This document shows positions 1 to 16,617 of a stretch of DNA of 16,617 nt, one piece after another. Below the pieces are notes generated by a model. That model was not told the origin of the DNA, made no database searches, and saw nothing but the letters and a program-made list of their open reading frames with translations. Numbering within the stretch: position 1 is the stretch's first letter; each line of letters begins with the position of its first letter. The translations under genes were made by a program, and so were the position numbers. Origin of the DNA: a virus; IMG/VR virus record IMGVR_UViG_3300029913_000003, positions 192,001 through 208,617 of that record. One strand, given 5' to 3'.

Positions 1-1392
1 AAATTTTGGATAAAAACCATTCTTATCATATTTATAAGCTCCTCTTCTTCCGATTTCAGTTGCTGCTGCAACAGGGTCGAATACTGAGTAATTTATATTT
101 CCGATAAAACTTGAATAACAAGGATTAACTTTTATTAATATTAATCCATTATTATCACAATGTTTATTTATTAAATTTGTTTGGAAGCCTAAGTTCCAAC
201 AATTATTTATTTTACGACGAACTTCTTTTGACATTTCATCCTGACTATTTGATTTAAAGTTTAAGTCTTCCATCACAAAATAACCACACTTGTAGTGAGT
301 TATTATATCAAATATCTTAACGTAAATGTTACCGATTTCATGTTTTCTTTTTCTGGTTAGATAAAGACTTTCGTCTACGGTAACATCTTTACCTGATTTT
401 TTCATCAACTCACTTAAGTCATAACATTTACTATCAATTACTTTAACTTCATCATTTGATGTTTTATCTAAGATTACTAAACCAATATAATCAGGATTTA
501 AATCAACTGCAGCAAATCTATTTTGATTTTTGCCTACAAGTTTTCGTGATGTTTGTTCTTGTTTATGTTTAATGTAAATGTTTTTGTCGTACTTACCATT
601 ATTCTTTTCTTTGATTTCCTTGATGTAAGTTTTATAATCAAAAGGTTCACCATTAATCATTTCATTATCAACTGTAATACAAAGATATTCATGATCTAAC
701 TTGACTGAAATAGGTAATATATTTAAGTCTTTAATTAATTGAAGATCCTTCAATTGTTTCTTATAATTACCTTTAACTACATAATTGATATAAATTTTAT
801 TCTCGCTGTTCATTTTATAAATGATTTGATTATTAGTAAAATCAAATTCAAAAAATCTATTAGAATTAGGATCACATTTAGATCCGTAAAGACTCAAAGG
901 AAGGATTCTATTCGAATGATATTCATCTGTTTTAGTAATTATAGTGTTTTTATTTTCCTTTTTATCATTATTTAAGTAGGATATTTCTTTTAGTAGTTTT
1001 CTTGTACCGAAAGTAATATCCTTTGATAAATTTCTATTTTTATAACTTAAGTTTTTCTGATATTTAAATAGATTCCTTGTTTCTTTTTTGGTTAATTTTA
1101 TTTTTGATTGTAATTCTTTTATATCATCTTGTAAATCAAGTATTTCCTGTGATAATTTATCTTTATTTGTTTGAATTTGCTTAAATTTTGTCTTAACATC
1201 AATTATTAAACAGTTAGACTCGTAAACACTCAAACCATATATTTTAGTTAATTTAGTAATATATTCTTTATCATTAATTTTATCATAATGTTTATAAAGT
1301 TTACGAAAGAAATATGAAAACTGTTTCTGACGATTTAATATTTTAAGTTTACCCTCTTCACTAACGTTAAATCCAACTTTTATTGATATCAT
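1..1392 (-). CDS. tnpB: IS607-family TnpB/Fanzor-like (OrfB) RuvC-type nuclease. It is 5'-complete (ATG at 1392-1390) and open through the window start, with 464 codons in the window and the C-terminus beyond position 1.
   Basis: I translated the minus strand from 1392 and found it open to position 1 in one frame. I spot-checked the frame at three places. The motifs fit TnpB: RFAAVDLNPDYIGLVILD (RuvC-I Asp), FVMEDLNFKS (RuvC-II Glu), VNPCYSSF (TnpB VDPxYTSQ-like) and FDPVAAATEIGRRG (RuvC-III D..AA.NI..RG). A coiled-coil-like K/E/L-rich N-terminal region is also present. The gene lies directly downstream of a MerR-HTH serine-recombinase tnpA, which is the IS607 arrangement. The CxxC..CxxC zinc finger normally found between RuvC-II and RuvC-III seems to be missing. 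Confidence 0.75.
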   Translation of the reverse strand, partial: MISIKVGFNVSEEGKLKILNRQKQFSYFFRKLYKHYDKINDKEYITKLTKIYGLSVYESNCLIIDVKTKFKQIQTNKDKLSQEILDLQDDIKELQSKIKLTKKETRNLFKYQKNLSYKNRNLSKDITFGTRKLLKEISYLNNDKKENKNTIITKTDEYHSNRILPLSLYGSKCDPNSNRFFEFDFTNNQIIYKMNSENKIYINYVVKGNYKKQLKDLQLIKDLNILPISVKLDHEYLCITVDNEMINGEPFDYKTYIKEIKEKNNGKYDKNIYIKHKQEQTSRKLVGKNQNRFAAVDLNPDYIGLVILDKTSNDEVKVIDSKCYDLSELMKKSGKDVTVDESLYLTRKRKHEIGNIYVKIFDIITHYKCGYFVMEDLNFKSNSQDEMSKEVRRKINNCWNLGFQTNLINKHCDNNGLILIKVNPCYSSFIGNINYSVFDPVAAATEIGRRGAYKYDKNGFYPKF

Positions 1393-1458
1393 ATATTATC
1401 TTGTAGTTCTTTTTTAATTTTATATCATTTATTATCTTGTAGTTCTTTTTTAATTTTA
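1386..1458. repeat. Near-perfect 36-bp tandem duplication (two copies, 1386-1422 and 1422-1458) spanning the tnpA stop and the tnpB start
   Basis: The unit tatcat[a/t]tattatcttgtagttcttttttaatttta occurs twice head to tail with one mismatch. Copy 2 carries the last nine tnpA codons plus its TGA stop. Copy 1 carries the tnpB ATG. Confidence 0.9.
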
Positions 1459-2027
1459 TTTAATTTTCTTCTATTTGAATATGATTTCATAGAGAAATAA
1501 TGAATAATAGAAATCAAATCATCTGTTAATTCTTGTTCATAACTTTTGTTTTGTATGTTATCACTTATGACTATAATTTTAGTACCAAAATATTTAAATA
1601 CTTCAGTAATAAGGTCGAATCCAAATCTACATAATCTATCTTTATTTTCAACTATAACGCATTCAATTTTACCTTCAATAACAAGTTTAATTAATTTATT
1701 TAAACCATCTCTTTCAAATGACATACCTGACTTAATATCTTCAAATTGCTGTTCAATTACTATATCATTTAATATAGAGAATTCATAAATTCTATTAGAT
1801 TGTTCTTTTAAATCATTTTTTCTTGGTTGGTTTGAAACTCTGGCATAACTAACATTAATTCTTTTATGTTTTATTTTTTTAACTCCAATTAATTTATATA
1901 CATCTTCGTCATTATAAATATATGAATAATTATTTATTTTATTAATTTTTATTAATCCTTTTTTAATATATTTACTTAATGTAACTTGGGTTATACCCAA
2001 TATTTCTTTTACTTCTTTTGCTTTCAT
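1425..2027 (-). CDS. tnpA: IS607-family TnpA: serine recombinase with an N-terminal MerR-like HTH
   Basis: This is a 200-aa ORF. The N-terminus MKAKEVKEILGITQVTLSKYIKKG is a MerR/excisionase-type HTH. It is followed by the catalytic-serine motif VSYARVSNQPRKNDLKEQ (YxRVS..Q) and the resolvase core DG..KLIKLV....IECVIVENKDRLCRFGF. The HTH-then-catalytic-domain order is specific to IS607 TnpA, because Hin/Gin invertases have the opposite order. The stop codon is TGA. Confidence 0.85.
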   Translation of the reverse strand: MKAKEVKEILGITQVTLSKYIKKGLIKINKINNYSYIYNDEDVYKLIGVKKIKHKRINVSYARVSNQPRKNDLKEQSNRIYEFSILNDIVIEQQFEDIKSGMSFERDGLNKLIKLVIEGKIECVIVENKDRLCRFGFDLITEVFKYFGTKIIVISDNIQNKSYEQELTDDLISIIHYFSMKSYSNRRKLNKIKKELQDNK

Positions 2028-2078
2028 AATTATATATATTAAATAAAAAATACCGTTTTTTGCTAAAATAATATAATT

Positions 2079-2096
2079 TATATAACGTTATATAAT
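2079..2096. promoter_or_regulatory. 18-bp perfect palindrome ttatataacgttatataa, about 50 bp upstream of the tnpA ATG. It is a candidate TnpA operator or subterminal recombination site.
   Basis: The sequence is exactly self-complementary and centred on a rare CG dinucleotide in otherwise pure A/T DNA. Its function is inferred only from its position. Confidence 0.35.
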
Positions 2097-2168
2097 TATA
2101 ATTAATAGTCTTTTATTATTTTTGTATTACATTTTCAGTTATAAATTCAATATATTTTTTCATATTTT

Positions 2169-4652
2169 TTATTCCCATCTATTATTATAAATATTTGATG
2201 TATACAATTCTTTAGTTGCATTATCAGCTAATATTAAATTATTAGAATCTTGCACTACTCGTTGTAATAATAAATTAGATTTAGATTCATCAGGAATAAC
2301 ATCATCATATATCCTTATATTTGTCAATTTTATATTAGATGAATTTATTATTATATTTTGATCAACATTAAATGTATTTAATGGTACAGTTACTCCTTCA
2401 TATTCATCAATATATTTTATTGACGCTATATTATATAAACTTGTGTCAGTTAATTTATCAGCAATTTCAGTATTTTTAACTGGTCTATATCCATTTGATG
2501 TATAATACGATATGTCATTTATATTTGTATTATCTAATATAACACTTTTATAATTAGGTGTAAACATTGTTATTTTATAATTATATCTTCTTTTAAATAA
2601 ATCTAAACTTATTGTTCTTTGTCTATTATCTAAATTTACAGTTAAACCATACCACATATTTGTTGTTAATCCTGTTATTGGTAAACTATAATTTATGTTA
2701 TTTATAGTCAATGTTATATTATTATTTGCGTAAGATAATTTATATCCTTTATTATTAATTGAATCATAGTTGTTTATAAATTCAAAATAACTTTTATTAC
2801 TAACATAATAAGAATTAAATATATTTTCATCAATTGCCTTATTTGGATCAAAACTATTATTAAAATTAAACCACACATTAAATGCTCTATTATCACTAAA
2901 ATTCAAATTTGAATCTTTATATGTATAAGTAACTGCGGTTGTACCAGAAGATAATGATGATAAATTATAATAGCTATCTGCTATTTTTATATCTTTTAAT
3001 GAATTATAGATATCTTTTTTAATTATCTCTAATTTTGGATTAACAATTAATCTATAAACTTCGTGTGTTATAGGTTTTAATTGTTTATTTGCAATTTTAT
3101 CTTCTTGTTCTCTTATTTCTCCGCCAAATAAAGAATCTATAGTATTATTATTTGTTAATGATTCAATAAGATTTTTTGATGCATTAGAAACATTAGTTTC
3201 ATTTGCAAGTTTTTCATATTTTTCAAGAACAACATTATAATAAACACCCATATACATAATATCTCTTTTTACTTGAGCATGTTTAATTCTATACATACGA
3301 TTTGCTTGACAAAAATATATAATATCTTTTTGGAATGGTCTTTTTTCTATTCCAAATGCATTATGAAATTCGTCTTTTAATATAATAACTTGAAATGTAT
3401 CCATCATATCTAACATATATTCATTTATTTGAACTTGATTATCTGGAAAATTATTTTCAGGTACAATTATTTTTATTTTTTGTGTATCTACTATATTAAA
3501 TAATTGATATTCATGTAATATACTATCTATTCCTTTACCGTCAGGATCTGTTAAATGATAATCAACTGTCCATCCAAATATTTTACCTACTGTATTTGAT
3601 AAATATGTATACCAATCTCCTATTTTTTGTCCAGCATAAGGATTAAATATGCCTTGTGATGCTGCTGTTTGAGTTGAATCTAATCCAGTTGTATTACTTT
3701 GTGAACTTAGACTTGGTATAACATTACCTGATATATAACAACTTAATCCTTTTGTCACCCAATCTTTACTATAATCTAATGGAGTTTTACTATCACCTTT
3801 ATATGATGTTATACCATTTAAACAAACTGAATTTGTACCACTATCTGTTGAATTTGAAATTGTAGTTCCAGTATTTACTGCAGGATAAGAAACTGCACAA
3901 TCCTCTCTAACTCCATATCTATTAGTTTTAAGATAATTATTATTAATATTTTGAAAATCTCCTAATAATATAATATCATAAATTTTAGATGTTGTTCCAG
4001 TATTTATTTTAGAAACTGAATACTCAACTTGTGCAAATCTAATTGGATTTATTTTTACAGTTGATATATTTTCTGTTGTTAAATTTTCCCAAGGCGTATA
4101 TGTTCTACCATTATCTTGAGTGAATCTATATTTAATTTGTAAATTATTAGTATTTGATCCATATATTTCATAACCAGTTAATTTGAAAACTTTATAAATA
4201 TCTTTTGGGGTAAATAATATAAATTCATTATCTGGTATATTAACAATTGTATCTGTTTGTTCAATATCATAAGTTCCTTCGATTACAATTGTATTTATTG
4301 TAAGTGCTGGTATTGTAGTAGTATCAGCATCAATTCTATAATAAGCTAAATTTAAATATAAGTTATTTAATGAGCAATAATCTTGTGTAATTCCTGTAAT
4401 AGGAGAATACTCACTATAACTTATACCACTTCTTGTATTGCTATAAGAAAAATATTTTTTGAAATAATGATCATTAGTTTCTCCTTTTACAATATCTGTA
4501 AATTTTGTAATTGATGATATGCTTTTTAATGGAACGATAGAAAAATTTTTAATATCACGAATTTGAGTAGATATTTCATCTGTATACGTTGGAGTACCTA
4601 ACCAACTCATTGTAAAAGTACCATCAAATTTAGGAGTGTAAATATATCTCAT
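2169..4652 (-). CDS. Hypothetical 827-aa protein rich in N, Y, T and I. It is probably a structural protein.
   Basis: This is a long uninterrupted ORF in a roughly 75% AT background. Its composition and codon usage match the neighbouring genes. I recognised no specific motif. Confidence 0.6.
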   Translation of the reverse strand: MRYIYTPKFDGTFTMSWLGTPTYTDEISTQIRDIKNFSIVPLKSISSITKFTDIVKGETNDHYFKKYFSYSNTRSGISYSEYSPITGITQDYCSLNNLYLNLAYYRIDADTTTIPALTINTIVIEGTYDIEQTDTIVNIPDNEFILFTPKDIYKVFKLTGYEIYGSNTNNLQIKYRFTQDNGRTYTPWENLTTENISTVKINPIRFAQVEYSVSKINTGTTSKIYDIILLGDFQNINNNYLKTNRYGVREDCAVSYPAVNTGTTISNSTDSGTNSVCLNGITSYKGDSKTPLDYSKDWVTKGLSCYISGNVIPSLSSQSNTTGLDSTQTAASQGIFNPYAGQKIGDWYTYLSNTVGKIFGWTVDYHLTDPDGKGIDSILHEYQLFNIVDTQKIKIIVPENNFPDNQVQINEYMLDMMDTFQVIILKDEFHNAFGIEKRPFQKDIIYFCQANRMYRIKHAQVKRDIMYMGVYYNVVLEKYEKLANETNVSNASKNLIESLTNNNTIDSLFGGEIREQEDKIANKQLKPITHEVYRLIVNPKLEIIKKDIYNSLKDIKIADSYYNLSSLSSGTTAVTYTYKDSNLNFSDNRAFNVWFNFNNSFDPNKAIDENIFNSYYVSNKSYFEFINNYDSINNKGYKLSYANNNITLTINNINYSLPITGLTTNMWYGLTVNLDNRQRTISLDLFKRRYNYKITMFTPNYKSVILDNTNINDISYYTSNGYRPVKNTEIADKLTDTSLYNIASIKYIDEYEGVTVPLNTFNVDQNIIINSSNIKLTNIRIYDDVIPDESKSNLLLQRVVQDSNNLILADNATKELYTSNIYNNRWE

Positions 4653-4707
4653 TTTTAATTATTTTATATTTCTCTTATATATAAAAAATTTAATTATAAT
4701 ATATTTT

Positions 4708-5454
4708 TTAAAAATTAACTCTTTCTTTTACTCTTATTGCATAACTTAATATTGATTCATATGTATAATAAGAATTTTTCATTTTAGGGTCTTTATATAA
4801 TTTAAAATCAGGAATAGAAGAAATATCAACTTCTAATATTACCCATTCGTCGATATTCATATTGAATAATTCTGTCTTATCATATTTATTTTTAAAAAAT
4901 TTTCTTTTTTCTGCACAAAATTCTTTAGCATCTGACAAATTGTCAGTTAAATATACTCTATCTACATCATTAGATATCATATTTTGAGATTTAGGAACTA
5001 ATCCTATTTTTTTAATTTTTTCGTAATAATATTTTGTTGTTGCATGATATAATATATCAGGTGTTCCATCAGGTACATCAAATCTTTTTTGAAATGTTAT
5101 ATTAAATATTGTATCTTTTGATATCATTATACTTTTTATTTCTAATCCATTATTATCAATTATACTAGGTTTAAAATATCCCATATTATGCATAAAACTA
5201 GTCAATTCTTTATTAAATTGTTTTTTATTTACATTTGAAATATCAATTGATAATGAAATATATCCTTCTAATTTTTTTATTTCATATTTAATATTATATG
5301 ATTTTATTAAATTATCTAATTTTTCACAAAAAAAGTCATAATCAACAGAATGAATTAATCCCTCCTTCATAGCTAAATAAAAATGATTGTGAAAATAATC
5401 TGCTTCTTCATTAAAATTTCTATATTTTTCAAAATTTTTAAACCTATCTAGCAT
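4708..5454 (-). CDS. 248-aa protein whose C-terminal half resembles the NAD-binding lobe of Tpt1/KptA RNA 2'-phosphotransferase (ADP-ribosyltransferase fold). The catalytic motifs look divergent.
   Basis: The segment ILYHATTKYYYEKIKKIGLVPKSQNMISNDVDRVYLTD lines up with E. coli KptA [32 protein letters not shown], sharing LYH.T, EIKK.GL and R..(V/Y).L. The Tpt1 signature RH and RxHxH histidines are not conserved. I am recalling this from memory and did no search. Confidence 0.4.
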   Translation of the reverse strand: MLDRFKNFEKYRNFNEEADYFHNHFYLAMKEGLIHSVDYDFFCEKLDNLIKSYNIKYEIKKLEGYISLSIDISNVNKKQFNKELTSFMHNMGYFKPSIIDNNGLEIKSIMISKDTIFNITFQKRFDVPDGTPDILYHATTKYYYEKIKKIGLVPKSQNMISNDVDRVYLTDNLSDAKEFCAEKRKFFKNKYDKTELFNMNIDEWVILEVDISSIPDFKLYKDPKMKNSYYTYESILSYAIRVKERVNF

Positions 5455-5492: not shown

Positions 5493-5524
5493 TATATAAA
5501 ATTTTGAATGATAAATTTTATATA
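5493..5524. promoter_or_regulatory. Inverted repeat (12-bp arms tatataaaattt / aaattttatata, 8-nt spacer) in the divergent intergenic region between 4708..5454(-) and 5544..6317(+). It contains the decamer AAAATTTTGA at 5498-5507.
   Basis: I verified the arms by reverse complementation. The ATG at 5508 listed in the ORF track sits in the loop, which argues that the real start is 5544. Confidence 0.4.
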
Positions 5525-5543
5525 TAAGAGAAAACATTTTTTT

Positions 5544-6317
5544 ATGGCTATAATCACCCCTAATGATCTTATTAATCCAACAGAAAAAACAATAAAGAAC
5601 TGGAATTGCTCATTTATTGCAGTTGAAGGTCCAAATATAATTGAAAAATTAAGCTTAGAAGATTTGGCTATTCCATATGAATCTCAATATAGATCGAGAA
5701 TAGTTTTAAAAGCTGGTGAATCTAATAAAATGCTTTACGGATTTATTGGTAAGGCTGTTACATTCTTAATGATAAAAGTAACTTATGATAGTTTATCTGA
5801 TCCATATTATACATATGAACAAGAAAAATATAATATAAATTATTATTTTGAAAATGATCCTATTCTTAGACCATTAAATAGATTATTAATAATGACAGGT
5901 TCTTCTGATGAAAGAATACCACAAATTTATGTGACAAATCCATTAGATTATGACGTAACATTAGATGTATTAGAAGCAACAGTTGATTCTGAATTTGATG
6001 AAGATGATGATATACCTGCTGATTATCAAATACATTATGCTATAACAAATATATCAAGTACATATTCTGGAAAAACAGATGATGAATATATAAGATGTTC
6101 TGGTACAACAGAATCAGGTTCTACATATTCATTATATTTACCGTTAGCAACTGGTACAGGAAATGTATTAACAATCAAAAATATATTAAACGGAGTTATA
6201 ACTATTTTAACACAAGATACAGATTTGATTGATGGTTTAAATTCATATGTATTAAATACTCAATATGAAGTAGTCGTGCTAATTGATGCAGGTACTGGTA
6301 TCTGGGATAAAATATAA
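5544..6317 (+). CDS. Hypothetical protein, paralogue A of a tandem pair. Its N-terminal domain is shared with 6325..7200.
   Basis: I prefer the start at 5544 (MAIITPNDL...) over the track start at 5508. The paralogue begins MAKITSNSL at an equivalent position, and 5508 lies inside a hairpin loop. The conserved blocks are IKNW..F....GP, AIPY.S.Y.SRIVL, KVTY and DPYY.YE...YNINYY......P..RLL...GS......QIY..NPLDYDV.LDV..A. Confidence 0.6.
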   Translation: MAIITPNDLINPTEKTIKNWNCSFIAVEGPNIIEKLSLEDLAIPYESQYRSRIVLKAGESNKMLYGFIGKAVTFLMIKVTYDSLSDPYYTYEQEKYNINYYFENDPILRPLNRLLIMTGSSDERIPQIYVTNPLDYDVTLDVLEATVDSEFDEDDDIPADYQIHYAITNISSTYSGKTDDEYIRCSGTTESGSTYSLYLPLATGTGNVLTIKNILNGVITILTQDTDLIDGLNSYVLNTQYEVVVLIDAGTGIWDKI

Positions 6318-6324
6318 TATAAAT

Positions 6325-7200
6325 ATGGCAAAAATAACAAGTAATAGTCTTTATGGTAAAACAAAAAGAGAAATAAAAAATTGGGGTAGAGATTTTAGAA
6401 CATCAGATGGACCTCAAACATCTTCTGTTATGAGTCTCAGTGATATTGCAATACCGTATGATTCATGTTATACATCAAGAATAGTATTACCTTCTTATAC
6501 TGAAGATTTTTTATTAAATTATGGTATAATTGAAGAATCTACTTTTTTATTATTAAAAGTTACATATAATGGTAATTATGATAATGAGAATGAAGATGCG
6601 TATGATCCATATTATTATTATGAACCAAGTACATATAATATTAATTACTATTATGATTCTAATTCAGGTATAACATATCCAATTGGAAGATTATTGCTTT
6701 TAAATGGCTCATTTCCAAATAAATTAGGACAAATTTATTTGAATAATCCATTAGATTATGATGTAGTTTTAGATGTAATGCAAGCTAATATTGAAGCTCC
6801 AATAGTTCAACCACCAAGTAGTGCAGTAACGATATCAAATTTGTATTATAGTGACATTATAACAAATCAAGTTGAATGTTATTCTTATACTGGATTAACA
6901 ACAGGATCTACTGAATTTATTATTACTGGAATTACATCTTCAATAATAAGTACAGGTTATACAATTACACAATATATAATTCCATATAATACTATTATAT
7001 CAATAAATTCAGATACATCATTATATTACATTTACATAAACACTACATCAACTTATTATACTATTAAATTTTTAACTCAATCTGATTATGAACAAGCATA
7101 TTTTAGAATAATATTCGCGTATTCATCATATACAGATGGTAATTGTAGATATTTAACTACAACAGAAACATACGATAGTGGTAATAATATAAATTGTTAA
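6325..7200 (+). CDS. Hypothetical protein, paralogue B of the tandem pair. Its N-terminal domain is conserved and its C-terminal half is unrelated.
   Basis: The same conserved blocks as 5544..6317 are present. I chose the start at 6325 (MAKITS...) rather than the track start at 6283, which overlaps the previous gene. The gap after the upstream stop codon is 7 nt. Confidence 0.6.
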   Translation: MAKITSNSLYGKTKREIKNWGRDFRTSDGPQTSSVMSLSDIAIPYDSCYTSRIVLPSYTEDFLLNYGIIEESTFLLLKVTYNGNYDNENEDAYDPYYYYEPSTYNINYYYDSNSGITYPIGRLLLLNGSFPNKLGQIYLNNPLDYDVVLDVMQANIEAPIVQPPSSAVTISNLYYSDIITNQVECYSYTGLTTGSTEFIITGITSSIISTGYTITQYIIPYNTIISINSDTSLYYIYINTTSTYYTIKFLTQSDYEQAYFRIIFAYSSYTDGNCRYLTTTETYDSGNNINC

Positions 7201-9022: not shown

Positions 9023-9583
9023 TTATTTAAATGAATCAAATTTCATTATACTGGAAACTACTTTTTCTTCTTTTTTAGATTTTTCTGTTTCTTCATCAAC
9101 ATCTTCTTCAACAATTTCTATTTTTTTCTCAAAAGCTGCTTCCAATTTTGAGATTGTGTCATTTTTCTCGACTACTTTTTCAACTTTTTTTTCAACTTTT
9201 TTTTCAACAATTGGTTTATTTTCAAATTTTGTTTCTGATACAGATATTCTTGGTTTATTTGAAGGTTTTTGAATTTCAGATACCATTTCTTCTATTTTAA
9301 TAGAAGCTTTACTTTTTATTTCAAAATTATCTTGCCACACTGGAAAATATAAATCTTCTGATATAATTTCAAATTTTATTTTTCCATTATCACCTTTTTC
9401 ATATAGACTCAATTTAGGAATTTCAAATCTACAAATATCATTTTCAATCTTACCTATTAAAAGAACATTTTTATTTTCTTTTGTCATTAATATTAATCTT
9501 GGCTCAACATCATTTACGTTAATGCCATCACTATTTATTTTAAATTTTAAAATATCATTCTCTTTATTGTTAAATAAATCCAT
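9023..9583 (-). CDS. Hypothetical 186-aa protein with a K/E-rich acidic-basic repetitive C-terminal tail (VEKKVEKKVEKVVEK)
   Basis: It is the only minus-strand ORF in this stretch. Its own AT-rich upstream region is 9584-9688. Its C-terminal tail is low-complexity. Confidence 0.5.
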   Translation of the reverse strand: MDLFNNKENDILKFKINSDGINVNDVEPRLILMTKENKNVLLIGKIENDICRFEIPKLSLYEKGDNGKIKFEIISEDLYFPVWQDNFEIKSKASIKIEEMVSEIQKPSNKPRISVSETKFENKPIVEKKVEKKVEKVVEKNDTISKLEAAFEKKIEIVEEDVDEETEKSKKEEKVVSSIMKFDSFK

Positions 9584-9603
9584 ATTAATTATTTATTTTT
9601 TAT

Positions 9604-9651
9604 ATTCTATATATTAATAAAAAAATATAGAATTATATATTAAAATTTTGA
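9604..9651. promoter_or_regulatory. Divergent promoter region. A 9-bp inverted repeat (attctatat / atatagaat, 12-nt spacer) lies at 9604-9633, and a second copy of the decamer AAAATTTTGA lies at 9642-9651.
   Basis: The arms are verified. The decamer sits 47 nt upstream of the 9689 ATG, and the identical decamer sits 46 nt upstream of the 5544 ATG. Confidence 0.35.
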
Positions 9652-9688
9652 TCTTCTTTTTTTAATATATAATAAAAAATTAAGTTTA

Positions 9689-11047
9689 ATGTCAACTGGA
9701 GTAATACTTCCAAATAATTCGTTAATAGCAGATTTGACCAGTAAATATTGGCTTTATTTTTCAGATAATTTTGGAAGTATAAATGCTACACTTATTAATG
9801 ATTCTAATGGACATCCAATAACAGGATATATATCTGGAAGAACCTCAATTTATTATGATTTTGATTATTCTGGTAATACTCAAGAAGGTAGAATACCAAA
9901 CACTGATGTAGATTTTACTGCTGTTGCCATTGGGCAAAATATCGCTAGATATTCTATAATTAAAGGTGTAATCACAAGTGGTTTAACAAATATAATTTTA
10001 ACTTCGGATACAGATTGGAATTATTCTGGTAATACTCAAGGAACAAGTGGCACATCAGGAATAGATGGAGAAAATGGTACATCAGGAGCTTCTGGTAGTG
10101 AAACTCTTGAACTTACAATTACTGGAGTTCAAGATGGTATAAATAAGAATTTTATATTATCTAGCGGAGTCAGTTATATCCACATGTTTTATGTTGATGG
10201 TCAATTACAAACATATAATAACGATTATTATGTTTCTGGATTAACTTTAACATTTATTAAAATACCACCTAAAGAAAGTGATATTTTAAGATTATTCATC
10301 ACACAGCATGGCGGTGTTTTTGGTACATCAGGAACAGATGGAACATCAGGAACAGATGGAACATCAGGAGCTTCTGGTAGTGAGTCTCTTGAAATTACAA
10401 TTACTGGAATTCAAGATGGTATAAATAAGAATTTTATATCATCAAGTGGTATTAGTGAAAATCATATGTTTTATGTTGATGGTCAATTACAAACATATAA
10501 TAACGATTATTATGTTTCTGGATTAACTTTAACATTTATTAAAAATCCTCCTAAAGAGAGTGATATTTTAAGATTGTTTATTACTCAGCATGGCGGTGTT
10601 TTTGGTACATCAGGAACAAACGGTACAAGCGGATCATCAGGGTCATCAGGTAGTTCAGGGTCATCAGGTAGTTCAGGTTCATCAGGTAGTTCTGGAACAA
10701 ATGGTACATCAGGTATAAATGGAGATATTATAAACGAAATTGATATTTCTGGAATTCAAGATGGAGTAAATAAAAATTTTATATTATCAAATGAAATTGT
10801 AAGTGAAAATCATATGTTTTATGTAGATGGACAATTACAAACATATAATAATGACTATTATATCTCTGGATTAACTTTAACATTTATTAAAATTCCGCCT
10901 AAATATAATTATATTTTAAGATTGTTTGGTAGTATAGGCACAAATTATCATAATGGAATTACTATTAATCAAAATATTGTTGTTGATAATTATGGAACAA
11001 TAAAAACATTAAATATTGTTAATGGTTTGATAATATCAATAACATAA
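9689..11047 (+). CDS. Collagen-like repeat protein of 452 aa. It has G-X-Y tracts (GTSGTDGTSG...) alternating with three globular modules of about 94 aa each. I read it as a fibre/fibril component.
   Basis: G-X-Y runs occur at about 10040-10100, 10321-10385 and 10606-10735, including (GSS)8. The module ITG(V/I)QDG(I/V)NKNFI.S....S..HMFYVDGQLQTYNNDYY(V/I)SGLTLTFIK.PPK...ILRLF is repeated three times. Confidence 0.7.
   Translation: MSTGVILPNNSLIADLTSKYWLYFSDNFGSINATLINDSNGHPITGYISGRTSIYYDFDYSGNTQEGRIPNTDVDFTAVAIGQNIARYSIIKGVITSGLTNIILTSDTDWNYSGNTQGTSGTSGIDGENGTSGASGSETLELTITGVQDGINKNFILSSGVSYIHMFYVDGQLQTYNNDYYVSGLTLTFIKIPPKESDILRLFITQHGGVFGTSGTDGTSGTDGTSGASGSESLEITITGIQDGINKNFISSSGISENHMFYVDGQLQTYNNDYYVSGLTLTFIKNPPKESDILRLFITQHGGVFGTSGTNGTSGSSGSSGSSGSSGSSGSSGSSGTNGTSGINGDIINEIDISGIQDGVNKNFILSNEIVSENHMFYVDGQLQTYNNDYYISGLTLTFIKIPPKYNYILRLFGSIGTNYHNGITINQNIVVDNYGTIKTLNIVNGLIISIT
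10132..10940 (+). repeat. Three internal direct repeats within the collagen-like gene. Copies 1 and 2 are almost identical at the nucleotide level, and copy 3 is diverged.
   Basis: For example, caagatggtataaataagaattttata occurs at 10132 and again at 10414, a period of about 282 bp. The third copy is near 10756. There is also a 9-bp-unit microsatellite (ggtagttca/ggttcatca) at about 10630-10700. Confidence 0.85.
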
Positions 11048-11098
11048 ATTATCAATAACATAAATTATCAATAACATAAATTATCAATAACATAATTT
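11035..11098. repeat. 16-bp tandem repeat atcaataacataaatt in four copies, the last with one mismatch. It overlaps the stop codon of 9689..11047 and ends 35 bp before the fibre gene ATG.
   Basis: I counted the repeat directly: 11035-11050, 11051-11066, 11067-11082 and 11083-11098. Confidence 0.9.
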
Positions 11099-11132
11099 TA
11101 TATATAATATAAATAAAAATAAATTAAAAATA

Positions 11133-14100
11133 ATGAGTACAAGATTAGATGCGAATGATAGATTAAAAGGATTAAGTTTTAAAAAACCTTGTATCGTTGC
11201 GACATTAGAAAATGTAAATTTAACAGGGTCAACTAATGTAATTGATGGAGTATCTTTAAATTTAAATGATAGAATATTAGTCATAAATCAGATAGATCAG
11301 ATAGATAATGGTATTTATATTGTTTCAAATGTTGGTACAGGTTCTGATGGCGTTTTATTACGAGCAAATGATTTTTCTACAAGTGATGATATATTTGCTG
11401 GAATTAACATTTATATTTTATCAGGAGATACATATAATGATAGTTATTTCATATTAAATACCGAAAATCCTATATTAGATATTACTCCGTTATTTTTCTC
11501 TAATAAAAAAATGTTAGATACTCAAAATGTAAGTAATAATCAAGTATTATTATATAATAATAATTCAATAATTGGTTATACAGGACTAACATATGATGGT
11601 AATACATTAGATATAAATGGTAATGTTAATATAACAGGTAATACAACAGTAATTGGAAATATTATTTCAAATACAATATCTGTAACAGGAGGAACTTCAA
11701 CTCAATTTTTAAAAGCTGATGGATCTATTGATTCAACATCATATACTGATTTTAATTTATTTACTGGTGAAACATTTGATAGAATAAGTGGTGATACATA
11801 TTTGAATAATTTATTAACAGGTGAAACATTTGATAGATTATCAGGTGATACATTTTTAAATGAATTATTAACAGGTGAAACATTTGATAGAATTTCAGGA
11901 GATACATTTTTAACTGAATTATTAACTGGTGAAACATTTGATAGAATTTCTGGAGACACAGTATTAAATGATTTAATTACAGGATTAACTTCAACAGTTA
12001 ATAATAATTATAATTTATTAACAGGTGAAACATTTAATAGAATAAGTGGAGATACAGTATTAAATGATTTAATTGAAGAGTTATCAATAAATGCTCAAAA
12101 TCAAATGAATAATGAAATTAATAATAGAATTTCAGGAGATACATTATTGAATAATTTACTAACTGGTGAAACATTTGATAGAATAAGCGGAGACACTTTT
12201 TTAAATGAATTATTAACAGGTGAAACATTTGATAGAATAAGCGGAGACACAATATTAAATAATTTAATTACTGGATTGACATCAACAGTTACGGATAATT
12301 ATAATTTATTAACAGGTGAAACATTTAATAGAATTTCAGGAGACACATTTTTAAATAATTTAATTACAGGATTAACACAGAATATTATAAATAATTATGT
12401 ACCTTATACTGGATCTACATCAAATATAGACTTAGGATATAATAATTTAACAGCTAGTTCAATTATTAAATCTGGTGGTACATCTAATCAATTTTTAAAG
12501 GCTGATGGAACTATTGATATAACTACATATTCAAATACTGGTCATAGTCATTATCAATTATTTCAACCAAATGGTACAACTCCTTTTGTCTATACAGATA
12601 ATGGTGGGTCATTTCATATTGATGGAAATATTATTCAATCAGGATCAACATATGAAACTCATACAGAACAAATATACACTACTAAAGATTATATTTATTT
12701 GAGAAGTGGAGCAACTTCTGGATTACCTGATGGACAATATGCAGGATTTACAGCTAAATTATATGACGGATCTAATGATGGTCAATTAGTCTTTGATAAT
12801 AAAGGCTTTGCAAGAGTTGGAGACGTAGGTAGTTTATTGAAATTAGCAGCTATTCAAGAAACACCTACAGATACACAATTTACTTACTATGATGCTGCAA
12901 CTTATTCATTAAAAACACGTGCTTTTTTAAGTGGTGATATTACAACGGCTTTAGGATTTACTCCTTATAACGCAACTAACCCATCTAATTATATAACAAT
13001 TGGATCAGTTCCTGTTGTAGCTACAACAACTCCTTTAATAAATGGAATTGCTGCAATTGGAGCAAGTGGTAAATGGGCTGATGGAGCACATGTTCATCCA
13101 GTTGATACTTCAAGACAAGTTGCATTAAGCGGAACTGGATTTGTAAAAAGCACATCAGGAACTATTAGTTATGACACTTCTACTTATATTCCAGTCACAG
13201 GAAATACAAATACAATAAACTTAGGTGTTAATAATTTAACAGTAGATACAAATACTCTGTTTGTTGATTCTGTTCATCACTATTTAGGTATTACTACAAA
13301 TAATCCTAATGCGTCAGTTGATATTGGAGGTTTTGGTACACCTTCTGATTATGGAGGAGGAACTGGTACGGCTAAAGTTTTAATTGCTGATAACGCGACA
13401 GGGTCATCTGGTGTTCAAATGTATAATTCTAATTCAGGAACAGCCTCTGATTTTAGATTTGCCATTTTTAATAATAATAAAAATGAATATATGGCATTTT
13501 CAACGCCAGCCGATACTAATACTAATACTTTATTTGGATTTGCAAGAAGTACATCTAATTATTTATTTAATAATTTAAATGGAGTAGGTGGCACTCTTAG
13601 AAATTTAACTATTGGTACGGTTGGAAGTTCTGACCTTATATTTGGAACTAACAATGTAGAAAATTTAAGAATAAAATCTGGAGGTAATGTCGGGATTGGA
13701 ACTACTACTCCAGGAACGTTATTAGAAATAAGTAACTCTGCAAATATATCTATTAATTCAATTTTAAGGATTAGAGACATTAATACTGGTGGTTCATATT
13801 TTGATATCGGTTCTGCTAATGGTAGTAGTGGATTATTCATTAATCAAGGCTCTACTAAGATAATGCAAATTAGAAGTAGTGGAAATGTAGGATTTGGAAC
13901 TTCATCAACCCCTAACGCAAGATTTAATATTTATAAAAGTGGAATAATTGATTATTTCAATATTACAAGTTCAGTTGATGGTGATGTGATGGTTATCTTA
14001 AATAATGGCAACGTCGGGATTGGAGCTACCACTCCAGACCAAAAATTATCAGTTTGGGGTGGTTCACAAAATATTATTGATCCAACAACTTTAGGTTCTG

Positions 14101-16617
14101 AAAGCTTAACTAATGGTACGTTATCTGGTGGAACTTCTTGGACTGCAACAAATGATTGTACTTTAGTATCTAATAACGCAACTTGGACTTTTTCTGGTGG
14201 AACTGCTTCAACTCTTACACAAACGAATGCTAATTTAACAGTTGCAGGAGTAGGATATAGATGGTATAAATTTGTTTATACAGTATCAGCTATTTCTGGA
14301 ACTCCATCTGCATCAATAACAACATCTTTTGGCGGATCAACAACTTCTCTTACTATAACAGCTGGAGCACAAACTACTTATTTTAAAGCAGCTACTACAC
14401 CTACTGATTTTGTTATTACTTCTACTTTGGTATCAGGACAGACATTCACATTGGGTACGTTTTCGTTAAAAGAAGTTCAAGGTGGAAATTTAATAACTGG
14501 TGGATTGTTAACTGGTGGAGGTACAACTGGTATTAAAGTTTTAGCAAATGGAAATGTTGGAATTGGAACAACTACTCCTGGACAATTACTTGAAGTAAAT
14601 AATGGGCACATAAATGTTTTAAATACCAATTATGGACTTCTATTAGCTTCTAATCAAGCTCTAACTAGGAATGGAGCAAAACTTGTACTTGCTAACTCAA
14701 GTGCATTTACTTCTATGGGGTTGAGTACCGTAGGAGTTGAAAGAATTTCTATTGATAGTTCAGGGAACGTAGGTATTGGAGTAACTCCAACGTCTATGCT
14801 TACTCAAAAATCTACAACCGCATTAGAATCTGCTACGTTAGGAACTGAATTAACAGCTTCTGGAGATACTTGGGGATTAGCAACAACTAAAAGCATAACT
14901 GCTTTTGCAAATTATGGATCTACTGTTGCTGGAACAGTTGAAGTAACTTCAAATGCTCATGGATTTCCAGCTGGAACAACAACTAATGTTGTAATATCAG
15001 GAACTACTAATTATAATGGTACATACACAATAACATATATTGATGTTAATAACTTTTATATTACGGCAACTTGGGTATCGAACGATGCAACTGGAACTGC
15101 AACTCAAACTGGTTGGTCTGGAACTTATGCTGGTGGATACACACACTCAACTGGAAATACAACAGCATTAACTGATTCTACATTGGTTCCAGTGGTTGGT
15201 AATTTATACCAAATAACTTATACAGTAACAAATAGGACGACAGGAACATTTACGATTACATTCGGCGGAGTTACATCTTATACTTATTCAGCAACAGGCT
15301 CATATGGTCCTAAAGCTGCAACAGTAGGAACATTAACTATTGCTCCAACGACTGATTTTAATGGCACAATAATACTTTCAATTAAATTAATTGCATCATA
15401 TTCTCCTATTTATGTTATTCAAGATAGTTCTTCTGCTAATACATTAGAAATTCGTAGTTCTTTAAATACTTCAGTAAATTTATTCATAGGTAAAAACTCT
15501 GGAAGATATAATACAACAGGTATTAATAATACTTCACTTGGATCTGGAGCGTTACCGATAAATTCAACTGGATTTAATAATGTTGCAATTGGTGGTAGTG
15601 CTATGCAAGCGAATACAGCTGGATTTTCTAATATCTCTATAGGTTTTAATTCCCTTTTAAGCAATACTGTCGGTTATGCCAATACATCAATTGGTAATGC
15701 AACTCTACAAAATAATTCTATTGGTTATTATAACACAGCAGTTGGTATAAGTGTTCTTGTCACTAACACAGCTGGGTATTATAATACAGGCATTGGAGCA
15801 AGCGCGCTTAGTTCAAATTCTACTGGATATTATAACACTGCGATAGGAATTAATTCTATTAATTTAAATACTACTGGTTTTTATAATACTGCATTAGGTG
15901 GTAATTCTCTTAGTTCAAATTCAGTTGGATCATACAATACTGCTGTTGGCTATTCATCGATAAGTAATATTGTATCTTCATATAATACTGCTATTGGTTA
16001 TATATCTGGTCGTTATATAACTGGAGGGGTAACAACTAATATCAATTCTTATAATTCTGTCTATATTGGAGCAAATACAATGGCATCTGCTGATGGCAAT
16101 TCAAATGAAATAGTAATTGGATATAACGCAACTGGTAATGGAAGTAACTCAGTAACATTAGGTAATACATTAATTACTAAAACTATTTTACAGGGTAATA
16201 CTGGTATTGGCGGATATACAACTCCTTTACATTTCTTAGATAATACTCAAACTCAGAATCAACGCACTGTTTATGGATTAAACGTGGTGATGAATGCTAC
16301 TAATCTTCAACAAGATATAGTATCTACAGGTAATGATGAACCACTTTTAAATCAATACTATGCCTGGAAATTTACCGCAAGTGCTGCAAACACAATGGGT
16401 TCGTTATCAGTTAGATTGAAGAAAATAGGTACTGTTACAAATACAACAGATTATATTAGACTTAAATTATATTCAGATACAGGTACAGCCCCAAATGCTT
16501 TATTATACACTTCTGATCAGGTTAAAATGGGCACATTAACGACTTCTTATGTTGAATACTTGTTTGGTGGAGACTATACGATGGTTAATGGTACTTCATA
16601 TTGGTTAGTAGTTGAAA
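11133..16617 (+). CDS. Giant fibre/adhesin-like protein of more than 1828 aa. It is 3'-truncated by the window edge. It carries tail-fibre-like repeats and YadA-head-like beta-helical repeats.
   Basis: The ATG is at 11133 (MSTRLDANDRLKGL...) and the frame stays open to the last base, verified at 13380 and 16560. All ORFs the track lists in this span are antisense or off-frame shadows. The fibre contains 18-aa tandem repeats LTGETFDRISGDTxLNxL at about 11755-12390, five SGNVGIGTTTP(G/D)..L-type motifs from 13681 to 14790, and N-T-A-(I/V)-G 14-15-aa repeats at about 15520-16000. The composition is G/T/N/S-rich throughout. Confidence 0.8.
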   Translation, partial: MSTRLDANDRLKGLSFKKPCIVATLENVNLTGSTNVIDGVSLNLNDRILVINQIDQIDNGIYIVSNVGTGSDGVLLRANDFSTSDDIFAGINIYILSGDTYNDSYFILNTENPILDITPLFFSNKKMLDTQNVSNNQVLLYNNNSIIGYTGLTYDGNTLDINGNVNITGNTTVIGNIISNTISVTGGTSTQFLKADGSIDSTSYTDFNLFTGETFDRISGDTYLNNLLTGETFDRLSGDTFLNELLTGETFDRISGDTFLTELLTGETFDRISGDTVLNDLITGLTSTVNNNYNLLTGETFNRISGDTVLNDLIEELSINAQNQMNNEINNRISGDTLLNNLLTGETFDRISGDTFLNELLTGETFDRISGDTILNNLITGLTSTVTDNYNLLTGETFNRISGDTFLNNLITGLTQNIINNYVPYTGSTSNIDLGYNNLTASSIIKSGGTSNQFLKADGTIDITTYSNTGHSHYQLFQPNGTTPFVYTDNGGSFHIDGNIIQSGSTYETHTEQIYTTKDYIYLRSGATSGLPDGQYAGFTAKLYDGSNDGQLVFDNKGFARVGDVGSLLKLAAIQETPTDTQFTYYDAATYSLKTRAFLSGDITTALGFTPYNATNPSNYITIGSVPVVATTTPLINGIAAIGASGKWADGAHVHPVDTSRQVALSGTGFVKSTSGTISYDTSTYIPVTGNTNTINLGVNNLTVDTNTLFVDSVHHYLGITTNNPNASVDIGGFGTPSDYGGGTGTAKVLIADNATGSSGVQMYNSNSGTASDFRFAIFNNNKNEYMAFSTPADTNTNTLFGFARSTSNYLFNNLNGVGGTLRNLTIGTVGSSDLIFGTNNVENLRIKSGGNVGIGTTTPGTLLEISNSANISINSILRIRDINTGGSYFDIGSANGSSGLFINQGSTKIMQIRSSGNVGFGTSSTPNARFNIYKSGIIDYFNITSSVDGDVMVILNNGNVGIGATTPDQKLSVWGGSQNIIDPTTLGSESLTNGTLSGGTSWTATNDCTLVSNNATWTFSGGTASTLTQTNANLTVAGVGYRWYKFVYTVSAISGTPSASITTSFGGSTTSLTITAGAQTTYFKAATTPTDFVITSTLVSGQTFTLGTFSLKEVQGGNLITGGLLTGGGTTGIKVLANGNVGIGTTTPGQLLEVNNGHINVLNTNYGLLLASNQALTRNGAKLVLANSSAFTSMGLSTVGVERISIDSSGNVGIGVTPTSMLTQKSTTALESATLGTELTASGDTWGLATTKSITAFANYGSTVAGTVEVTSNAHGFPAGTTTNVVISGTTNYNGTYTITYIDVNNFYITATWVSNDATGTATQTGWSGTYAGGYTHSTGNTTALTDSTLVPVVGNLYQITYTVTNRTTGTFTITFGGVTSYTYSATGSYGPKAATVGTLTIAPTTDFNGTIILSIKLIASYSPIYVIQDSSSANTLEIRSSLNTSVNLFIGKNSGRYNTTGINNTSLGSGALPINSTGFNNVAIGGSAMQANTAGFSNISIGFNSLLSNTVGYANTSIGNATLQNNSIGYYNTAVGISVLVTNTAGYYNTGIGASALSSNSTGYYNTAIGINSINLNTTGFYNTALGGNSLSSNSVGSYNTAVGYSSISNIVSSYNTAIGYISGRYITGGVTTNINSYNSVYIGANTMASADGNSNEIVIGYNATGNGSNSVTLGNTLITKTILQGNTGIGGYTTPLHFLDNTQTQNQRTVYGLNVVMNATNLQQDIVSTGNDEPLLNQYYAWKFTASAANTMGSLSVRLKKIGTVTNTTDYIRLKLYSDTGTAPNALLYTSDQVKMGTLTTSYVEYLFGGDYTMVNGTSYWLVVE
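11755..12390 (+). repeat. 54-bp (18-aa) tandem repeat array inside the fibre gene. Copies of ttaacaggtgaaacatttgatagaat(t/a)(t/a)caggagatacattttt are interrupted by two NNYNLLTGETFNRISGDT variants.
   Basis: I read the array directly. It is flanked by two roughly 60-nt related segments encoding (T/S)GGTS(T/N)QFLKADG(S/T)ID at about 11680-11740 and about 12470-12530. Confidence 0.85.

Follow-up and report, generated by a model that had tools for sequence, protein, structure and literature searches.

The window analyzed here (16,617 nt of viral DNA, positions 192,001 to 208,617 of IMG/VR record IMGVR_UViG_3300029913_000003) opens with the left 90% (positions ~1-2131) of an IS607-type insertion sequence (IS), with its tnpA and tnpB genes on the minus strand, lying in the genome of a huge tailed phage. 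The TnpB belongs to the ISCaje4-like branch -- a large, Pfam-invisible part of the TnpB/Cas12 superfamily in which the C4 zinc finger has been lost and a C-terminal extension of ~90 amino acids (aa) is present instead. The 3' end of the element is omega-RNA-like and the system is predicted to be RNA-guided; this is the explanation of the locus that we favor, and we consider it likely to be right. The locus is one more copy of a known though uncharacterized finger-less TnpB branch, not a new kind of system.

The tnpA and tnpB genes

An earlier, sequence-only reading of the window had called an IS607-type tnpA-tnpB pair, and both open reading frames (ORFs) lie where it had put them. The tnpA gene (positions 1425..2027, minus strand) encodes a 200 aa protein with a MerR-type helix-turn-helix (HTH) followed by a resolvase catalytic domain that carries the YARVS motif. 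It matches the NCBIfam model transpos_IS607 (NF033518) at the equivalog level, with 154 bits against a cutoff of 110, contains the Pfam domains MerR_1 and Resolvase, and also matches PHROG 6620, "transposase" (E 2.6e-44). It aligns with the solved catalytic domains of the IS607 family (ISC1926, IS1535), the YARVS serine motif included; its PDB matches are 6dgc (ISC1926 TnpA, E 1.9e-22), 3ilx and 6dgb. Judged by its sequence, it is an intact IS607-type serine recombinase. The gene order, tnpA and then tnpB, with a 4-nt overlap in some contigs, is likewise shared with the IS607 family (IS607, IS1535, ISC1926).

Positions 1..1392 (minus strand) hold the first 464 of the 533 codons of the tnpB-like gene; beyond window position 1 come the other 69 codons and the stop, followed by the right end of the element. 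The window TnpB is 100% identical to residues 1-464 of a 533 aa protein, P0001, that is present on 17 contigs, the longest of them 346 kb. Neither a frameshift nor a premature stop is present in the complete gene, as recovered from metagenome contigs of identical sequence; according to the sequence-only reading, either would have counted against its call. The translation contains RFAAVDLNPDYIG, GYFVMEDLNF and YSSFIGNINYSVFDPVAAATEIGRRG, among which all of the RuvC peptides that had been quoted are found.

For the catalytic residues, an alignment of 38 homologs was used, with 32-72% identity to this TnpB. Invariant in all 38 are D297 of RuvC-I (motif AVDLNP; codon 502..504, minus strand), which ends the predicted strand 289-298; E375 of RuvC-II (motif FVMEDL; codon 268..270, minus strand), which ends the predicted strand 369-375 and lies inside the region matched by the TIGR01766 model; and D439 (motif FDPxxAxxEIGRRG; codon 76..78, minus strand), with which the predicted helix 439-452 begins. 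NP299-300, Y426, S428, FIGN429-432, E446-I447 and R449-R450 are invariant as well. D439 is proposed as the RuvC-III aspartate on two grounds, its motif (D-x-x-[NSA]-A-[AS]-x-E-I, similar to NADxNAAxNI) and the topology, as it opens the helix that follows the fifth strand. It comes 7 residues past the invariant YSSFIGN, and no zinc finger intervenes. The absence of the finger between RuvC-II and RuvC-III, which had been suspected from the single protein, extends to the whole alignment: there is no conserved Cys between these motifs in the 38 homologs, and the TNB domain PF07282 was detected in just one of them, at E 0.05. Since both hold across all of these sequences, the D-E-D triad and the missing finger are traits of the family. 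About 90 residues follow RuvC-III, forming the C-terminal extension.

The ISCaje4-like branch of TnpB

The AlphaFold2 model of TnpB (predicted local distance difference test score 86) has a WED-REC-RuvC architecture like that of TnpB and Cas12f, with the D-E-D triad split over a RuvC domain of RNase H fold. Foldseek searches with this model gave Cas12k (E 2.4e-8), Cas12f (E 4.6e-7), Fanzor2 (E 7e-4) and TnpB (E 3e-3). Among profile models, TIGR01766 matches 34 of the 38 relatives at E<=0.01 (best E 2.2e-10) and NF040570, guided_TnpB, matches four of them.

In a megablast search tnpA matched Campylobacter phage CP220, and this pointed to ISCaje4, an element of that phage which is annotated as belonging to the IS200/IS605 family and consists of a resolvase-like TnpA fragment and a 465 aa TnpB. 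This latter protein aligns with our family profile over 428 columns (hhalign probability 100%, E 2.6e-50), and on the strength of this full-length match the window TnpB is placed in an ISCaje4-like branch. The two proteins have in common YSSFIGN, ASIEIGRRG and the lack of a zinc finger, and in both only TIGR01766 is detected; ISCaje4 is likewise phage-borne, where it adjoins uvsW, and the 3' RNA module described below is common to this element and to a ~430 aa size class that includes the ISCaje4 TnpB. There are also clear differences. Identity between the proteins is ~28-30%, the REC region has here a coiled-coil insertion of ~50 residues (aa ~75-125) that the ISCaje4 TnpB is without, tnpA is intact in the window but truncated in ISCaje4, and the right-end motif of the short ISCaje4-like class is of the GTATTTTA type as against GTATATA here.

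More than 467 proteins were found at E<=0.001 in the protein search. The cellular homologs are mostly in metagenome-assembled genomes (MAGs) of Bacteroidota, some of which hold several copies, while those of phages are in Lak megaphages and in CP220-like Campylobacter phages. Compared with canonical TnpBs of the IS605 and IS607 groups (ISDra2 TnpB, PDB 8EXA/8H1J; ISFba1 TnpB, 8IAZ), this protein lacks the C4 zinc-finger/TNB insertion, has the ~90 extra residues at its C-terminus (533 aa as against ~400), and escapes both Pfam OrfB_IS605 and sequence searches of the PDB. Loss of the C4 zinc finger has been reported for some large TnpB branches (PMC10691335, Altae-Tran et al. 2023). One of these, clade RIIIr-4, is finger-less and virus-enriched, with the RuvC-III aspartate replaced by histidine (PMC10691335); assignment to it was considered and rejected, for D439 is invariant here and there is no conserved His at that position, though the absence of the finger does agree.

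A covarying structure at the tnpB 3' end

The sequence-only reading had expected a guide RNA to derive from the 3' end of tnpB and the right end of the element, just beyond position 1, and a covarying structure is indeed found there. Alignment A2, in which 13 clade members are compared over the final ~200 nt of the tnpB ORF together with the tail, supports five helices with 39 pairs. Here 92.3% of cells are paired as compared with 42-53% when the partners are slid, 17 of the pairs show compensatory changes, and none of 500 shuffles scored as high. The covarying helices reach ~200 nt into the ORF (A2 columns 13-57 and 114-133), the main ones are also recovered in single-sequence folds, and a T run comes after the terminal hairpin.

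With a covariance model of the 3' 85 nt, R1, ~45 more loci were found to have the module on the same strand as tnpB and at the 3' end of that gene; the ~430 aa ISCaje4-like class and solo elements that have no tnpA are among them. In the resulting alignment of 32 distinct sequences, A4, which is itself fitted to the model, paired cells make up 87.6% (43-63% with slid partners), and compensatory changes are seen in 16 of the 22 pairs. Searching Rfam with the whole element at a permissive threshold gave only a spurious microRNA match, and known IS607 RNAs such as RAGATH-18 were not matched. By position and pairing, the 3' structure fits the scaffold of an omega RNA or right-end element RNA (reRNA) that would end at the right end of the element, with the flank ACAGCAGAAAAAAAAATTG... 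as the predicted guide. This flank sequence is seen only in IS-bearing loci and has no occurrence elsewhere in IMG/VR. Locus L085 holds two R1 matches: besides that at the tnpB 3' end there is another ~3.5 kb farther upstream (442-526, 46 bits), which may represent a second element or a solitary omega-RNA/right-end remnant.

Ends and insertion context of the element

Coordinates beyond the window are given on L001, a contig of the same phage on which window position 1 corresponds to 11392. The whole element spans ~2.33 kb (L001 ~9298-11630), the right 238 nt lying beyond window position 1; its extent follows from related independent insertions, which lose similarity at TGTAAA... on the left and 26-28 nt past the tnpB stop on the right. 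The left end occupies positions 2102..2131 (minus strand), with its outer boundary at ~2131 (TGTAAT...) rather than at 2168 as had been proposed, positions 2132-2168 being flank. The left-end motif TGTAAAxGAAAA is one that the element has in common with the independent insertions L017, L034, L021, L019 and L097. On the right, similarity between independent insertions (L017/L034/L021; L018/L033) drops sharply 26-28 nt after the stop, and the tail that closes this element (...TTGTTTTTGTATATA) ends ~26 nt past it. The two ends share the motif TATTGTTTT as well as an inverted repeat of 26 nt, 85% complementary, that was detected in a repeat search (L001 9302-9327, window 2127-2102, with L001 11599-11624); the termini are TGTAAT... 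and ...GTATATA, and the flanks are without GG. Within the window, no further copies of the right end are seen.

Throughout the family, a tail of 15-50 nt follows the stop and closes with a clade-specific motif (GTATATA, TCTGA, ATCTCA or GTATTTTA). Individual clades (L099, L100, L102, L106, L109, L136 and others) differ in sharply conserved right-end motifs -- TGTSTCTGA, TATCTCA and TTTTGTATTTTA -- which suggests clade-specific recombinase cores and, possibly, clade-specific target-adjacent motifs (TAMs). No consistent TAM or crossover dinucleotide emerged from six left flanks, in which T or TT mostly precedes TGTAAA, though AA does so here. The target site is not reconstructable, since related phages are without the flanking acetyltransferase gene described below. 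That gene and the two small genes downstream of it were considered as cargo of the element and rejected, as the similarity of independent insertions ends 26-28 nt past the tnpB stop; the TTG start called for the acetyltransferase falls inside the right end.

Two further features were noted within the element. One is a perfect 18-bp palindrome, TTATATAACGTTATATAA (2078..2095), in the stretch that leads from the left end to the start of tnpA; it was read directly from the sequence, came up as an inverted repeat in the repeat search as well, and is a candidate operator or TnpA site. At the junction of tnpA and tnpB there is a 36-bp tandem duplication (1386..1459; Tandem Repeats Finder: period 36, 2.1 copies, 97% matches) that is polymorphic in the phage population, being present in the window, L002-L004 and L197 and absent from L001 and L196. 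Without it the tnpA stop overlaps the tnpB start (ATGA); the duplication uncouples the two ORFs, placing 32 nt between that stop and start, and changes the final TnpA residue from I to K. A sigma-70 promoter scan did no better than shuffles, with 21 matches as against 24.6 expected.

Host phage and neighboring genes

The host genome is that of a huge (at least 346 kb) tailed phage of ~22% GC. The 827 aa neighbor of the element is closest to proteins of uncultured phages of 634-735 kb (LR756501-4, LR745206), with Sphingomonas PAU, Chryseobacterium and Tenacibaculum phages as the next-best matches, and its orthologs lie on IMG/VR contigs of about 20-500 kb; genes for a UvsW helicase, an M15 peptidase and an ExoX-like protein are nearby. 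The phage probably infects Bacteroidota. The AT-richness and the lack of Shine-Dalgarno (SD) sequences that had been noted at the outset are both borne out -- GC in the window ranges from 0.18 to 0.36, and at none of 11 gene starts is GGAG, GAGG or AGGA found in the 25 nt upstream. Missing SD motifs are also typical of Bacteroidota, and the probable host accounts for their absence here. The evidence for describing the surroundings as a viral structural region is weak, consisting of a match to a "neck protein" over 18% of the length of the 827 aa protein and of the collagen-like and repeat proteins described below.

The element sits between the 827 aa virion-region gene and a gene for a GNAT acetyltransferase. 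In related phages the 827 aa gene is directly followed by a 161 aa gene (L010, L011) or by other genes (L005); some relatives have nothing downstream of it and others two unrelated genes, whereas here the IS, the acetyltransferase and two small genes are present (window 2169-5454 and L001 9261-12705, compared with L005, L010 and L011). Because gene content after the 827 aa gene differs in this way, the IS is taken to lie in a variable island. In one related phage (L008/L028 1464-3059, IMGVR_UViG_3300009502_000053) a different member of the TnpB family, with 36% identity and no tnpA, lies immediately upstream of the ortholog of the 827 aa gene, and the intergenic regions around this gene have thus been hit independently.

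Several other genes of the window are of note. A 248 aa gene upstream (4708-5454) shows a weak, sub-threshold match to Tpt1/KptA (E 0.0096) and has no match in the related phage loci L005-L015. The overlapping adjacent genes at 5508-6317 (269 aa) and 6283-7200 (305 aa) resemble paralogs; they have no family match and have in common the N-terminal motif ...IKNW..F...GP....LSL.D[LI]AIPY[ED]S.Y.SRIVL.... The 452 aa protein encoded at 9689-11047 is probably a fiber protein, with three repeats of ~95 aa (a 282-nt tandem repeat, 1.9 copies, 90%) that are separated by collagen-like G-T-S/G-S-S stretches (Pfam Collagen, E 2e-9). Five tandem copies of the 16-nt unit TATCAATAACATAAAT (11034-11114) are found in the intergenic region that precedes a giant ORF of at least 1842 aa (11091-16617; 1857 aa on L001), which runs off the right end of the window, has no Pfam match, and contains tandem repeats of 54, 96 and 291 nt at 11753-12398. 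GC climbs from ~0.22 to ~0.33 from ~12500 onward.

Proposed mechanism and alternative explanations

In the mechanism that we propose, the MerR-HTH serine recombinase TnpA would excise the element and insert it as double-stranded DNA. The 3' ~200 nt of the tnpB mRNA, together with the 26-nt tail, would fold into the multi-helix omega/reRNA scaffold, and read-through transcription into the flank (ACAGCAGAAAAAAAAATTG... in this phage) would supply the guide. The ribonucleoprotein would then cut element-free flank DNA beside a probably A/T-rich TAM, and such cleavage may drive retention of the element or its homing, for example into co-infecting relatives. A broader version, which we put forward tentatively and with slightly more doubt than belief, is that the ISCaje4-like branch as a whole is a functional RNA-guided endonuclease without a TNB finger, the C-terminal module of ~90 aa and an omega RNA of ~225 nt, of a kind not represented in Rfam, taking over the role of the finger; it would use an A/T-rich TAM and be spread by huge Bacteroidota phages, Lak phages and Campylobacter phages, which would employ it for homing or for competition when phages co-infect a cell.

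A number of observations weigh against the explanation that we favor. Pfam gave no family match, PF01385 OrfB_IS605 included, for the truncated protein, the full-length protein or the 38 relatives -- only coiled-coil noise -- and on TIGR01766 ("TnpB-related") this TnpB scores 28.4 bits, below the cutoff of 32 (E 1.7e-6; aa 364-428). Searching the PDB by sequence, with either the single protein or the family profile as query, returned no TnpB, Cas12 or Fanzor chain, and the family profile gave no significant hhalign match to the one canonical TnpB compared (that of ISCaje3, from the same phage as ISCaje4). To our knowledge, the zinc finger/TNB is kept in every biochemically characterized TnpB, Cas12f and Fanzor; since it is absent here, cleavage competence is unproven, and the case for D439 draws on its motif and predicted topology, not on active-site geometry. 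The fold of L001's own 3' end is thermodynamically unexceptional (z -0.8), the RNA covariation falls inside the coding region, and A4 was fitted to the model. IS607 elements have been described as being without terminal inverted repeats, mostly GG-ended, inserting at GG and using G-rich TAMs (PMC13565253), whereas the 26-nt, 85% inverted repeat and A/T-only ends are found here. Finally, an empty site was not found -- 19 of 19 contigs with an identical 827 aa neighbor gene carry the element -- and therefore its mobility in this phage and its TAM are undemonstrated.

Of the other explanations, one is that the phage retains, for purposes of its own, a TnpB-derived factor that does not cut (an RNA-guided DNA binder, a nickase or a TldR-like regulator); this is unlikely. 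The missing zinc finger/TNB is indeed family-wide, but so are D297, E375 and D439, which are invariant over the 38 sequences down to 32% identity, unlike in TldR or in Cas12k, the nuclease-inactive protein that gave the top Foldseek match. Most family members on viral contigs are without an adjacent tnpA, as such a factor might be, yet solo tnpB elements are the norm for canonical active TnpBs (PMC10691335). In addition, copies occur with defined ends, at many unrelated sites and several times per genome, which is the behavior of a transposon and not of a domesticated single-locus gene. Rather improbable, too, is that the conserved 3' structure is an element for mRNA 3' stability or termination, or a set of right-end DNA sites for TnpA, and not a guide scaffold. 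A terminator could explain the T run after the terminal hairpin, and recombinase sites the occurrence of TATTGTTTT at both ends, but helices extending ~200 nt into the ORF go far beyond what a terminator or a double-stranded site for a serine recombinase needs, the compensatory changes keep pairing and not sequence, the module is kept in solo elements without tnpA, and its position and extent match those of the omega/reRNAs of characterized TnpBs (PMC13565253).

The sequence-only reading had pointed to a nuclease of the Fanzor2 lineage, with a eukaryotic giant virus as the carrier of the IS607 element. This we regard as highly improbable, the host being a huge tailed phage, not a giant virus, and RuvC-II being in its canonical position. 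Fanzor2 proteins are found in eukaryotes and giant viruses, retain the finger, and have the RuvC-II glutamate relocated to a point just upstream of it (PMC13565253); in comparison with ApmFz2 (PDB 9B0L), neither the host range, nor the relocated glutamate, nor the retained finger applies here, E375 lying on the canonical FVMEDL strand, ~50 residues before YSS. The neighboring genes match huge tailed phages and Bacteroidota and Sphingomonas phages, with UvsW and the M15 peptidase close by, and the homologs are those of bacterial MAGs, mostly of Bacteroidota, and of Lak and Campylobacter phages. Cas12f, Cas12k and bacterial TnpB outscore Fanzor2, and the absence of SD motifs is equally typical of Bacteroidota.

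Implications

Cas12 descends from TnpB nucleases, which also serve as miniature genome editors. A large finger-less family that has an invariant triad and still looks like a mobile element would reveal whether the finger can be dispensed with, and it could offer editors with A/T-rich TAMs. Because current Pfam models miss it, the family is under-counted in annotations of phages and of Bacteroidota. Its abundance in huge phages bears on the exchange of genome segments, or the competition, among such phages.

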